From Girardia tigrina (lineage: Eukaryota), in contig MQRK01228601.1 of the NCBI GenBank assembly GCA_001938485.1, forward strand, positions 1 through 64,000: DNA of 64,000 nt. Reading direction: 5' to 3'. Below the pieces are notes generated by a model. The model did not search any database, was not told the DNA's origin, and saw only the letters and a list, made by a program, of their open reading frames with translations. This document shows, piece after piece, positions 4,192 through 10,100 of this stretch (within the stretch, counting starts at the first letter, position 1; the number at the start of each line of letters is the position of its first letter). Made by a program: the position numbers and the translations under genes.

Positions 4192-7100
4192 GTATTCTAC
4201 AGTGTCATGTTTTTAACATCATCAGCTATAATAATTTCGATTTGGATTTATCTTTTCAAACACCGAAATGAAACTTTTGAAGCTTTGAAAGAAGATAGAA
4301 ATAGTAATTTAAAACTTTTATTATCGCAAAGAGGAGAAAAAGTTAATTTGTATCTAAGATTTGGTTTAACAAGTATGTATAAACTTATACTTATGATATT
4401 TATTCTGTTTTAAGCCTTTATATAATATAGATTTTTAAATGACGAAAACTTGACAAAAAATAGATAACATAAGGGAAAATAAACTTTGGTGATCCAAAAA
4501 CATAGGGAACGATAAAATAGCGATGTCGAAATAGCGCCGATCATTATTTATTTTATTTGTATTTAAAAATTTTAATTTATTTAAATAATTAACCATCGGC
4601 GATATAATTATTAAATTTTGAAAAGAAGTTATTATTTTCTTTTATTATTATTAAAATTCTTGAATGATGAATTCTGATATCGATTTTACTAACAATTTTA
4701 TTTTCTGCAAGATACCATCTGGATTAATGTCGGATTTAATGTTTTTTTGGAACAGATGTCAATTTACAATTACTTGAAACATCCTCACTCGTTAATTGAT
4801 GGCAGTTTTAAGGTTGCACCTGAGTTATTCATGTATATTTTCCCAGTGTCGTGCACTCATTAATCAGTGTGCTGTACCATTCATATATGTTCTCCGGTCA
4901 TCTAAACTTGAGACCCAGTATATTCGAATCTTCAGGAAACTATTGGAGCTAAGTCCGACACTAGCACCATAAAGTATGATGTTAGATTTTGAGAAGGCAA
5001 GTCAAAATGCAGTTAGTACAGTATTTCCGGAGACTATGCTAGTCGGTTGTCTATTTCATATTGGACAATACCTCTTGCGCAAAGTACAATATGAAAATCT
5101 TGCAGCTATTTATCATTATGGCGAAAATATAAATTTATTAGTTTAAATGCTGCTACCTCTTTTATTTGTTTCATCTGGCGATGTAAATACTGCCTTTGAA
5201 GAACTAAGTGATGTTCGGCAAGATGTTATTGAAAATTTGTATGACTACTGGGAAGACAATTACATTGGTCGTTGGAGACGAAACTGCAGAGTTAATTCTA
5301 TATTTCCGGTTGTTGGGTTCTTGATCAATATTAGAATTCATTAACAACAAAAATTTATTAATAACACAAGTAACAATTATTTAAACAATTTTTCTTGAGG
5401 AACTTTTTGTTTTCTTTCGACCAAATTTCTTATACATAAAAATATGGAATTATAAATACTGATAAGCTATTTATTAAAATGCGATTTTAGAAATTAAAAT
5501 TTTTTCATTAAGTTTATAGATTAGTATTATATTATTTGATAAAATTTAATTTAAAATCAGTATAAAATGAAAATTTATTTTAACCAAACAAAAGAGTTTA
5601 ACGTATTATTTATTATCAATATTTAAATTTAAAATACAATTTTTATTATTTGAAATACAGGTTACGATTTATAATACACTTGATGAATTTAAAATACCAA
5701 AATATTTTATTTAAGCAATATTTAAATTTATTATTATTTAACAGTATTAATATTATTTAATAATAAATTTATTATTATTTAATAGTGATTCATTAATTAA
5801 TATTATTTAATAATAACTTTATTATTATTTAATAGTCATTCATTAATTATAAAATTATTAATAGCAGTTTTTGTATATTATATATTTTATTAATTATTTA
5901 TCGAATTTTAATTTGCAGAATTTCTAACTGGTTTTTAAATCTAAATTATCTTTTTTTATTACATCTTTAACAACAAAAATTTCATAAAGTTATTCTTNNN
6001 NNNNNNTTTTTTAAAATAAATGCAAAATAATTAAAATTCAATTATTTTTAAAAATAACTCTTTTTTTAATTAATTAAGATATTTAGTTATAACTGTTTTA
6101 TAACTTTTGATTTTAAATGTTTTTTTTTCTTTTTTTAGAGATTATTTACAAAAATTAATTATTCAAAAATTTAAAGAATGAGCCCGTCCTTCACACCGGT
6201 AACATTGGGGAATGTTCCAAATCGAGTACAGGACAATCTACCACTAACAATCAATTCCATGGAGGGGTGGCACCATGCATTTCATAAATCTATTGATGGT
6301 CACCACCTTAATGTCTACAAGTTGATCAATCCTTTTCTTAGAGAATAAGACTACACTGAGAACAGACTTTAACGATACAATGCAGAAGAAAAAAGCAAAA
6401 CTGCAAGCAAGGCAAAAAGTGTTCAAGTAAACAGACTTCTTGCAGCTTTGTCGCCAACATCTGGCAACAGACGACTGATTCGCGACCAAACACTTGGATA
6501 ACAGCCGAACGTTATTGGATTACAATATACAGAAGGACGCCACAATTCATCTTCTTCTGCGACTGAAAGGTGGAATGATTTCGACTAGTCAAGAAGAACT
6601 AAAATGGGAGGATGGATGGAATCGAAAAAGAACCATCAAAGCAAAGTTAACGAGGTCCCGAAATTTGATGCTGCAAAGCCTTTTAGACAAATCAGAGAGC
6701 AAACAGACCAGAATAAAATATGAGGACACATATTCAGACGTAATAAATTCACTGGAAAATTTATCAATCCTCGCCAGAAAATTGTGGCATCATGATGAAT
6801 CCAACAAGATACAGGGTGTGGCAGCTATTTGAGAACACGTAATATAGACACCATATCTTTTTGTGTGTTATAAATACATAATTTTATTTTTGCTGGTAGA
6901 CATGGCAGAAGCTACTCTTACGAATGAAATGAAAAGGCATGCAGTTATTGTGTCATTAGCTGCAGGACACACCGATTCAGAAATTGCTACATTTTTGAAA
7001 ATCGCCCGGTCGTTTGTTTTTAAAAGTCGTACAGAATTAGGAGCTGCGAAGGGTGATGGGGCTGAAGCTTCGCAACGGAAACAAGTTTGTAGACGTTCGG

Positions 7101-10100
7101 ACAGTATCAGAAATGCAGAATTTGTAAACCGAGTCCAATCTGTCANNNNNNNNNNNNNNNNNNNNNNNNNNNNNNNNNNNNNNNNNNNNNNNNNNNNNNN
7201 NNNNNNNNNNNNNNNNNNNNNNNNNNNNNNNNNNNNNNNNNNNNNNNNNNNNNNNNNNNNNNNNNNNNNNNNNNNNNNNNNNNNNNNNNNNNNNNNNNNN
7301 NNNNNNNNNNNNNNNNNNNNNNNNNNNNNNNNNNNNNNNNNNNNNNNNNNNNNNNNNNNNNNNNNNNNNNNNNNNNNNNNNNNNNNNNNNNNNNNNNNNN
7401 NNNNNNNNNNNNNNNNNNNNNNNNNNNNNNNNNNNNNNNNNNNNNNNNNNNNNNNNNNNNNNNNNNNNNNNNNNNNNNNNNNNNNNNNNNNNNNNNNNNN
7501 NNNNNNNNNNNNNNNNNNNNNNNNNNNNNNNNNNNNNNNNNNNNNNNNNNNNNNNNNNNNNNNNNNNNNNNNNNNNNNNNNNNNNNNNNNNNNNNNNNNN
7601 NNNNNNNNNNNNNNNNNNNNNNNNNNNNNNNNNNNNNNNNNNNNNNNNNNNNNNNNNNNNNNNNNNNNNNNNNNNNNNNNNNNNNNNNNNNNNNNNNNNN
7701 NNNNNNNNNNNNNNNNNNNNNNNNNNNNNNNNNNNNNNNNNNNNNNNNNNNNNNNNNNNNNNNNNNNNNNNNNNNNNNNNNNNNNNNNNNNNNNNNNNNN
7801 NNNNNNNNNNNNNNNNNNNNNNNNNNNNNNNNNNNNNNNNNNNNNNNNNNNNNNNNNNNNNNNNNNNNNNNNNNNNNNNNNNNNNNNNNNNNNNNNNNNN
7901 NNNNNNNNNNNNNNNNNNNNNNNNNNNNNNNNNNNNNNNNNNNNNNNNNNNNNNNNNNNNNNNNNNNNNNNNNNNNNNNNNNNNNNNNNNNNNNNNNNNN
8001 NNNNNNNNCTTTATGTACGTGTTAATATATGTAAAATTTTAAATTGTAATAAATGTTATTTTTCTGTTGTATGTTCATTTTTTGAACTTTATGTCATTTT
8101 GTTCTCAAATAGCTGCCGCACCCTGTAGAAGACGATATGGAAACAATGGATATTAAAACAATATCAAACTCTTGAAAATTCAAACTGAAGTCAGTATCCG
8201 GAGTTTGAACGCGAGTATATCTGTCCAAACTAAACCAAGAAAATCTCTGGATCATTTCAAACGTCTCGAAGTCCCATAATTTTCTGGAAAGATTTCAGAA
8301 TACGAAGCTTGGCGAGTTGCATTTAGGGCAAATATTGAAACTGCAGACGGAAAAAAGCAGCGAAAAGATGTTGTATTTGAAACAGTTTCTTGCTGGAGAG
8401 CCACTGAAATGCATAAAAAGTATTGGATATGCTGATCAAGACTTCGAAGTGGCACTGAAACGGTTAGATGAAAGATATGGTTGGCCTCAGAAGGTGTACA
8501 ATTCAATTTTGGAGGAAGTTATTTCTTTCAGACCAGTTCATCCAGATGAACCTCGTGATTTAGAGCGCCTGGGAGAGTTAATCGAAAATGTAGTTGTCAG
8601 ACTGAAGTCCATTAATATGCAAGGTGACTTGGGCCAAGGTTTTTTGTATTTAAGTTATTAAACAAACTCCCCAATGCTTACCTAGTAAAATGTCAAAAAT
8701 GGTGCAGCTACAATCAGGAAGAAGTGTCGGTAGAAAATTTAGAAAAACGGATTACTATAGAATCTGATTTCTTCCGAGATGCCAGTGAACTATTAGGAGA
8801 ATCTAAGAAAACTCAGAGGAGTTCGTTCCATAGTTATTTTGACCAATCCAAGAGCGGCTATTCGGATTTAGAAGGTCGAAACAAATTATTTCCAAGATGT
8901 ATCATGTGTCGAAAGGATCACCGTTTGGAAGAATGTGGGACGTTTAAAAATTTGATCGTGTATGACAGATTAAACATAGTAAAAAAAGAACGGTTATGCT
9001 TTAACTGCCTTCGGAAGAATCACCTAGTAAAAGATTGTTGAGCGCCTCAAAAATGTAGAGTTTGACAAGAAACACCATTCACTTCTTAATTGAAAAGAGG
9101 GAACTCTGAAGTCAAAGCTTAGTCGTCGGTCAATGAAGAACAGACACTAGTCACCAAAGAGGCTCAGTTGAAAGATGAAAATCGCTTTGTATCCTTGAGG
9201 ACTGTTGCAGTAATTTTAACGCTAAATAGAAAGTCATTAGTTATAAATGCCTTACTTGACGACGCGAGTTCCGGATACTACATTAGTGATGCGATAGTCA
9301 AAGAATTACAATTAAATAGAAAAGACGGAAATCTTTCGGTAGGTGTAATCGGAGGATTTAAACGCCATTGGAAAATTCAAGAATTCGAAGTTGAGTTGAG
9401 GAGTATGGACGGGTTCAAGGACTCGTGGTAAAAACCATCGTAGGCAATATGAAAGCTCTTAATTAGAGAAGATTGGCTCCTCATTGGGAAAATTTAAAAG
9501 GAGTTTCTTTCCGTCGTTTTGAGGGAAAAGGTTCGGTGGATATGCTGAATGGAGCAAACTACACAGATTTGCATTCCTCGTTAAAAGAGATTAGAGGTAG
9601 TGAAGAAGAACCAATAGCTAGTTTGACACCATTGGGGTGGACGTGCATTGGGGTAGTACCATTAGCTATGGAAAAACGAACGAAGAAAAAACATTTTGGA
9701 TTTACTGCATTAATAATCTTGAGGGAGAAGTTAGACGATTTTGGGAGCTCGAAGAACCATGGCAGAAGGAGGAGCGGACTCCTAACGACGAAGAAGTTTG
9801 GCAGAGAAGTGTTGCTTCAATGTTTTGGAATGAAGGTCGCTATCAGGTGAGTCTACCATGGGAAGTTGGAACTTTGGAGCCGGAGGGGAACTTGGATATG
9901 GCAAAGAGACGATTAGAAAGTTTGATGAGAAGATTCACGAAAGATGAAGAATTAAAGTTGGAATATCATCGCATTATTGAGGATTATAACAAAAAGGGAT
10001 ATATTAGAAAATTGAATAGTGAGGAAGAATTATAAACTGGATGGTGGGTTCCTCATTTTCCAGTGATCCGACGGGATAAAGAAACTACAAAAGTGCGTAT

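Follow-up and report, generated by a model that had tools for sequence, protein, structure and literature searches.

Ubiquitin lies in frame before Gag across a clade of BEL/Pao retroelements in Girardia tigrina

The window, a stretch of 64,000 nucleotides of Girardia tigrina contig MQRK01228601.1, contains a dead copy of an element from a large BEL/Pao clade in which the gag frame takes in a captured host ubiquitin directly ahead of Gag (Table 1). The ubiquitin-Gag fusion is clade-wide, in frame and not a chance join, and comparison of diverged copies shows purifying selection on the ubiquitin. We consider it probable that host deubiquitinases cut after the terminal Gly-Gly (GG) of this ubiquitin and thereby fix the N-terminus of Gag.

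Table 1. Positions of the element remains and of the repeats that interrupt or border them in the window.
Feature	Position	Strand	Basis
Unrelated high-copy repeat	6196..6479	+	Genome matches
Ubiquitin remnant, residues 45-76, ending Leu-Arg-Leu-Lys-Gly-Gly	6479..6574	+	Pfam PF00240; sister-copy identity
Gag N-terminal helical region, starting with Met, in frame with ubiquitin	6575..6809	+	Open frame
TIR DNA transposon inserted later into gag	6810..8127		28-nt TIRs, TA duplication
Remaining gag: DUF1759 capsid region and Cys-His zinc knuckles	8128..9040	+	Pfam, translations
Decayed pol: protease, reverse transcriptase, RNase H and integrase, in this order	9123..12976	+	Pfam, tblastn
Unrelated repeat at the site of the relatives' polypurine tract and 3' LTR	12976..13246		Genome matches

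A sequence-only reading of the window had proposed a ubiquitin in frame with a BEL/Pao Gag, LRLKGG being followed directly by Met and a Gag helix, and both points were confirmed: an open frame of 117 amino acids (6479-6829) contains the C-terminal piece of ubiquitin, matching PF00240 over positions 44-71 (E 7e-5, under the curated cut-off), LRLKGG ends at 6574, and Met and the helix come next. DUF1759, which the reading had placed past a stop or frameshift, was indeed found in 8209-8658 (Pfam E 1e-9), after stops and frame changes that interrupt the remaining gag. The extent of the ubiquitin had to be reduced to the residues in Table 1, and the ubiquitin-like bases upstream of about 6478 are part of the unrelated repeat; an extension of the similarity to 6353 was rejected since it needs an 11-codon gap and falls in this repeat. 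From 6478 on, the window copy is 92-95% identical in nucleotides to sister copies, one of which (L002) has all 76 ubiquitin codons, 50/76 being identical to host ubiquitin, and the Gag N-terminal stretch has 149 matches in the genome. The pol remains showed Pfam matches to Peptidase_A17 and DUF5641, and tblastn with the BEL polyprotein P0012 was colinear with the window over 8226-13000, with 35 stops.

The upstream repeat replaces the 5' LTR, primer-binding site, leader and ubiquitin residues 1-44 of the element; it has 39 other genome matches (76-83% identity), most of which stop at 6479, and all six copies inspected continue beyond this position into non-ubiquitin sequence. The repeat is MULE-like by motif, but the reading's 'MULE' label is not proven. 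The insertion in gag is flanked by a duplicated TA, and the sister copy L088 has a single TA at the site and an uninterrupted frame there; the name 'maT' is not proven, 863 bases of the insertion being N and a weak HTH_23 match its sole domain. At the 3' end, genome matches break at 12976 into two separate sets, and both LTRs and the polypurine tract are gone from the window copy.

Four of five close copies of the window element carry ubiquitin, and the fifth begins inside Gag. Among 68 Gag (DUF1759) loci chosen blind to ubiquitin, 45 have an upstream ubiquitin or ubiquitin-like domain (41 by tblastn and four by eye in a Pfam-confirmed family), two have a very remote GG-type domain upstream of Gag, and 21 are truncated or gapped; the copies are related to each other, so these counts overstate independence. 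Copies lacking upstream ubiquitin were sought, and none of the 68 loci combined an intact Gag start with the absence of an upstream ubiquitin-like segment. Given its presence in the close copies and across the Gag-picked loci, the chance juxtaposition that the reading had allowed for is excluded. PF00240 was found in relatives, and L232 matches ubiquitin at 38% (E 2e-12); L217 and L097 gave no Pfam ubiquitin match, and the remote domain of L229 (pairwise E 0.01) was judged also by its position and GG. A FUBI (Fau) origin of the most diverged, LLGG-ending families was rejected, as host FUBI (L244) matched 0/23 listed loci. Among 150 public Gag relatives, six also have the fusion. A word-indexed protein search yielded none among 2307 candidates, all ESM Atlas scores were below 0.8, and a metagenome scan of 6/64 parts, from which a range is not inferable, gave 79 loci, mostly ordinary ubiquitins and none with an adjoining Gag.

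Relatives share LTR starts and ends, with an LTR of about 0.55-0.9 kb (BEL/Pao range 0.2-1.2 kb), and most of 14 relatives have a G-rich (polypurine) tract before the LTR begins. None of the copies recovered has both LTRs in full. The primer-binding site is present in 24/69 copies. Genomic 3' ends of tRNA-like sequences match it, and we take them to resemble the end of initiator Met tRNA; ARAGORN called no full tRNA gene on six tRNA-like loci. The match to a Met-type tRNA end apparently departs from the Belpaoviridae profile, in which this site is complementary to tRNA-Arg or tRNA-Gly (PMC8742986). In relatives the open frame can extend from within the 5' LTR across the primer-binding site. 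Nine of the 24 copies with this site have a leader free of stops (P<=0.002 for each, compared with 500 shuffles), and the other 15 have stops or a net frameshift there. The protein does not begin with ubiquitin: in relatives an open leader sits upstream of it. In 15/25 copies the first Met after GG is at least 27 codons downstream, so that a start further upstream is required for the Gag helix; Met directly follows GG in 6/25, including the window's own family. The leader frame can contain captured host pieces, among them Hsp90, which erodes by deletion, and a Vac14-like piece from which two GT-AG introns present in the host gene are missing; the cargo varies from family to family.

RNA support for the ubiquitin-Gag element is weak. 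In six RNA-search runs, a fraction of 0.13-0.35 of the L086 words was present, and contigs cover leader, ubiquitin and Gag; one contig from X2, whose RNA status is a guess, joins leader to Gag. None of the pieces listed bridges the GG junction with 31 letters per side, and the window's own family has no cover.

Element ubiquitins keep L-R-L-x-G-G and their surface drifts; families about 35% identical to ubiquitin nonetheless end in GG. In 47 gap-free copies G75 is retained in 47 and G76 in 45, with same-site retention of 0.72 for I44, 0.55 for V70, 0.45 for R74 and 0.30 for M1. When one copy per class was taken (18 classes), L71, R72, G75 and K48 were retained in all, G76 in 17, I44 in 13, L8 and R74 in 11 each, and V70 in eight; positions 8, 44 and 70 mostly stay hydrophobic, and fold-core residues are conserved. 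R74 is part of the tail read by many deubiquitinases. G76 or GG is altered in L002, L003, L007/L008 (a change common to both), L062, L076, L217, L239 and P0036. Seven copies have a second ubiquitin tail remnant further upstream, and there GG is lost in 7/7, probably in one event, while the Gag-side GG is retained in 6/7. Of 47 copies, 41 have Ser or Met directly after GG and none has Pro (background 5.9%); a residue other than Pro after Gly75-Gly76 is a criterion for cleavable linear ubiquitin fusions. Of 30 pairs in a dN/dS check on the ubiquitin part, as the reading had advised, the 10 whose dS was at least 0.4 gave 0.07-0.32, and the 14 close pairs (dS<0.3) scattered from 0.17 to 1.86.

Comparison of the two sides of the junction shows that ubiquitin has been exchanged between families at GG: L025 and L026 are 93% identical in Gag and 60% in ubiquitin, L064 and L069 90% and 53%, and L086/L037 show the reverse (ubiquitin dS 0.17, Gag dS 1.39). 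Several families carry near-host ubiquitins (up to 74/76 identical) with dS of 0.34-0.40 to one host polyubiquitin unit, and their occurrence on deeply diverged Gags suggests repeated renewal. The ubiquitin tree has 10/29 well-supported branches.

A putative host-cleaved leader is favoured because GG is kept, dN/dS is well under 1 and swaps occur at GG. Leader, ubiquitin and Gag would be translated as a single precursor, which host deubiquitinases would cleave after Gly-Gly to give Gag a fixed N-terminus, leaving it indifferent to the pieces acquired by the leader; the ubiquitin may have been captured by template switching in reverse transcription. Several observations count against cleavage: with Met directly after GG in the window's family, Gag could start there uncut; R74 is often replaced and GG changed in some copies; leaders can be interrupted; and dN/dS scatters in close pairs. 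It seems unlikely that ubiquitin-GG is a reusable adapter making a gene-capture cassette of LTR and leader, by which captured Hsp90, Vac14 and RNA polymerase subunit pieces are translated in frame and clipped off Gag as ubiquitin-tailed modifiers, conjugatable to host proteins by the host's machinery and renewed from host polyubiquitin.

Alternatively, ubiquitin might stay on Gag at least partly, as a binding or degradation tag (for ESCRT or ubiquitin receptors, or for a proteasome limiting Gag), which would fit the conserved fold core, the invariant K48 and the mostly hydrophobic positions 8, 44 and 70. Engineered Gag-ubiquitin fusions can substitute for late domains and need L8/I44, but according to the accessible part of that report they are C-terminal with GG deleted (PMC2958808). 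We regard an attached tag as improbable, since it would need no GG, yet GG is among the best-kept sites, I44, L8 and V70 vary, and the window copy showed no envelope gene; the ESCRT recruitment idea is weaker than that of a host-cleaved leader. The useful product could instead be the released leader-ubiquitin with its free GG, conjugated to host proteins or acting as a decoy against the host's ubiquitin-dependent silencing, with Gag release a by-product. R72 and K48, kept in every class, and the apparent renewal of near-host ubiquitins speak for this, but identity in other abundant families has fallen to about 35%, R74 is replaced (by Cys) even in the near-host family, and the cargo differs among families, making such a product distinctly improbable. 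Finally, ubiquitin might be a passenger, captured once and open only for ribosome transit, or untranslated in those families, the window's among them, in which a Met for Gag follows GG; the erosion of other captured pieces such as Hsp90 would agree with this. We consider a passenger very unlikely, as site-specific conservation largely contradicts it: dN/dS is low between diverged copies, fold core and GG are kept although family Gags are just 17-25% identical, and GG was lost from the upstream tail remnant but retained on the Gag side.

The elements resemble BEL/Pao (Belpaoviridae, PMC8742986) in the DUF1759 Gag, Pao peptidase, DUF5641 and PR-RT-RH-IN order and, in relatives, LTRs with primer-binding site and polypurine tract, and differ in having ubiquitin-GG ahead of Gag, in a frame that can already be open within the 5' LTR, and in the CCCH fingers of some families. 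A typical BEL relative (P0011, Mya arenaria) has a Met start just before the helix, unlike the ubiquitin-led Gag. Cytopathic pestiviruses (BVDV) likewise capture host ubiquitin mRNA in frame in their polyprotein (PMC8310069, PMC13517609, as far as these sources are accessible), the ubiquitin sometimes being N-terminally trimmed and behind other host fragments, with GG abutting the released protein; cellular hydrolases cut these inserts to give the authentic NS3 N-terminus (accessible part of PMC8310069). Those inserts are sporadic, in an RNA virus, with cleavage shown, whereas here ubiquitin is fixed clade-wide before Gag and cleavage is predicted. Previously, Gag-ubiquitin fusions had been engineered for retroviral budding studies; in a single animal genome every informative BEL/Pao Gag sampled has the fusion described here, which also occurs in several public assemblies. 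Our literature searches (titles and abstract openings, with supplements, Repbase and subscription journals outside their scope) found no paper on a natural ubiquitin-Gag element or retroelement lineage with ubiquitin fixed before Gag; the word 'ubiquitin' is absent from the main text of PMC3118150 and PMC5408684, and the accessible parts of PMC11410931 and PMC10144533 hold nothing further on it. If host enzymes make the first cut, Gag maturation would depend on host deubiquitinases and the element would tolerate in-frame gene capture in its LTR, which would open a concrete path to exon shuffling and offer a natural set of diverged ubiquitins with which to map host enzyme recognition. The giant gypsy elements Burro/GYPSM1 also encode LTR polyproteins that have captured host domains, one of them Ubi2/SUMO-like, but there Gag is N-terminal and the SUMO-like domain lies inside ORF1, with no cleavage role reported in the accessible text (PMC6431247). 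LTR-mediated retroposition likewise places intron-less host mRNA pieces inside LTR elements; its retrocopies, in the accessible part of PMC5131818, are chimeras flanked by discontinuous elements, whereas here the LTR or leader contains the pieces, and they share the frame of ubiquitin-Gag.

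The sequence-only reading had placed in the window an in-frame fusion of ubiquitin to a BEL/Pao Gag, a TA-flanked insertion and the loss of the element's 5' part, and each of these was recovered. One frame reads through a ubiquitin tail terminating in LRLKGG, then a Met and the helical start of Gag, the ubiquitin piece matching Pfam at E 7e-5, under the curated cut-off; the transposon inside gag is absent from a sister copy; and unrelated repeats stand in place of both ends of the copy, including the lost 5' end. Downstream of the Gag start, Pfam recognised DUF1759, Pao peptidase and DUF5641, and the class was assigned from these domains and their order, which the element shares with BEL/Pao (PMC8742986). 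Because 35 stops lie across the region aligned with a BEL polyprotein, the window copy is dead, and it is itself only a broken member of the ubiquitin-Gag clade. Its pol end resembles that of L180-type copies from the same genome, but at the Gag start the likeness falls to only about 38%, a mismatch hinting at recombination between families.

Coordinates of element parts, captured pieces and neighbouring repeats in the window, in loci of the same genome (L) and in a public Gag relative (P)
Sequence	Positions	Strand	Feature	Evidence
Window	6479-6829	+	last 32 residues of ubiquitin, then Gag start	Pfam
Window	6810-8127		transposon inside gag	28-nt inverted repeats, TA duplication
Window	8226-13000		colinear with BEL polyprotein	alignment
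Window	12724-12977		pol end	87% identical to L180-type copies
Window	14170-15126	-	decayed DNA transposon piece	weak MULE match, E 0.054
Window	4700-5340	+	decayed DNA transposon piece	MULE-like frame, by eye
Window	15712-17030		decayed element	29-31 nt inverted repeats at borders
Window	2607-3231		decayed element	29-31 nt inverted repeats at borders
L083	5073-6038	-	CCCH-type zinc fingers	Pfam
L086	2260-2390	+	CCCH-type zinc fingers	Pfam
P0006			CCCH-type zinc fingers	Pfam
P0006	920-993		CFAP58 coiled coil closing the Gag	
L086	47-452		Vac14-like piece within an LTR	40 genome matches
L087	360-872		captured RNA polymerase N/8 kDa subunit piece	E 4e-13
L009	1017-1640		mitochondrial-carrier match	weak, E 0.02
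L088	513-1922		stretch shared with L089, upstream of a close copy	91% identical; ankyrin- and RING-like frames, by eye
L089	8509-9901		stretch shared with L088, upstream of a close copy	91% identical; ankyrin- and RING-like frames, by eye

Searching the genome at the DNA level returned five closely similar loci (84-96% identity), of which four have ubiquitin and one starts within Gag; L002 retains a complete 76-codon ubiquitin. For a sample blind to ubiquitin, loci were taken by Pfam DUF1759 (150 of 1330 candidates scored), and the resulting 68, the top 30 plus 38 hand-chosen and mostly with upstream room, are related copies whose counts are not independent events. An upstream ubiquitin or ubiquitin-like domain is present in 45 of them (41 by tblastn, four by eye with the family confirmed by Pfam), a very remote domain occupies that position in two (one terminating in RIRGG, the other with a single-base change at that spot), and the remaining 21 are cut or gapped. 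Copies lacking upstream ubiquitin, named by the earlier reading as evidence against it, were looked for, and no intact Gag start without a ubiquitin-type segment occurs among these 68 loci. The ubiquitin-Gag fusion is real and clade-wide.

Outside this genome, ubiquitin precedes Gag in 6/150 public-library Gag relatives, as recognised by phmmer (Pfam confirms five), with records in JGI/IMG, ENA and MetaClust; one of them additionally has an Hsp90 piece, and a seventh relative opens with a ubiquitin-tail remnant. Among the 41 public matches with at least 200 residues ahead of the core, ubiquitin is present in three, and therefore the fusion is confined to a clade. Searches of literature listings returned no natural ubiquitin-Gag retroelement, and within that scope the ubiquitin-led Gag is a new, clade-wide variant among BEL/Pao elements; the main text of the principal BEL/Pao survey (PMC3118150) contains no mention of ubiquitin.

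In relatives of the window copy, a polypurine tract and LTR start lie downstream of pol, and the matching LTR end, with a primer-binding site after it, lies about 515-640 bases upstream of the ubiquitin end, which puts ubiquitin inside the element, downstream of the primer site. The primer tRNA does not seem to match the Belpaoviridae profile of PMC8742986. Repeated 3'-half tRNA-like sequence matching the primer site occurs at four loci (L202, L203, L242 and L243), on which ARAGORN called no gene. Among the 24 copies with a primer-binding site, out of 69 examined, the frame from primer site to ubiquitin is free of stops in nine, extending upstream into the LTR (P<=0.002 for each against shuffles); the other leaders have stops (5/24) or a net frameshift (10/24). 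In L086 a frame of 1118 codons begins in the LTR with the Vac14-like piece and continues through a ubiquitin-tail remnant, ubiquitin, DUF1759 and CCCH fingers.

Between element ubiquitins and host polyubiquitin units, dN was 0.02-0.33 and dS ran from 0.34 to saturation. Measuring dN/dS on the ubiquitin part, as the earlier reading had suggested, gave 0.07-0.32 in the 10 of 30 pairs of copies with dS of at least 0.4 and a spread of 0.17 to 1.86 in 14 close pairs, six being not estimable. Across 47 gap-free copies (three misaligned ones left out), G75 is kept in all and G76 in 45, M1, R74, V70 and I44 vary, and GG is followed by Ser or Met in 41 copies and by Pro in none; with one copy per class (n=18), no variation is seen at L71, R72, G75 or K48. 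GG has been lost from a second ubiquitin tail, further upstream, in all seven copies showing this tail. Ubiquitin and Gag have been exchanged at GG, near-identical Gags carrying very different ubiquitins and the converse; support in the ubiquitin tree is too weak for counting captures. Host polyubiquitin units (L128-L139) have Ser at position 19, and L133, a GC3-rich three-unit polyubiquitin gene with a short extension at its end, is the nearest match of several element ubiquitins.

Translation would yield a single precursor beginning in the LTR or leader. Downstream of GG, the next Met is at least 27 codons away in 15 of 25 copies, and in the window's family it immediately follows GG. Linear ubiquitin fusions are cleaved after GG by deubiquitinases, and host enzymes would probably cut the predicted precursor there. 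Such cleavage is reported for pestivirus ubiquitin inserts (PMC8310069), and the element's ubiquitin likely works alike. Were ubiquitin to stay attached as an ESCRT or degradation tag, this would agree with the engineered fusions of PMC2958808 but would leave the retention of GG unexplained, and we consider it unlikely. We give slightly less credence to a conjugatable decoy, and least to ubiquitin as a passenger, which seems improbable; RNA evidence, being weak, was left out of the weighing. Cleavage after GG by host deubiquitinases is the reading that we prefer.

Other host pieces have also been captured. The Vac14-like piece lacks two GT-AG introns of the host gene (host exons in L342 and L343), and therefore this cargo was captured at the RNA level. 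The ubiquitin-Gag element recalls the domain-collecting Burro elements (PMC6431247) and LTR-mediated retroposition (PMC5131818). A fragment of the Hsp90 middle domain stands in frame immediately ahead of ubiquitin in three loci and one public relative (L083, L084, L087 and P0032; Pfam E down to 5e-28) and is eroded by deletion in other families. The window copy has Cys-His knuckles at the position of the CCCH fingers of some other families, a difference that points to another exchange of domains within Gag. In L086, L087 and L079, which are possibly non-autonomous derivatives, the Gag frames extend not into pol but into long coiled-coil tails, acidic or repeated.
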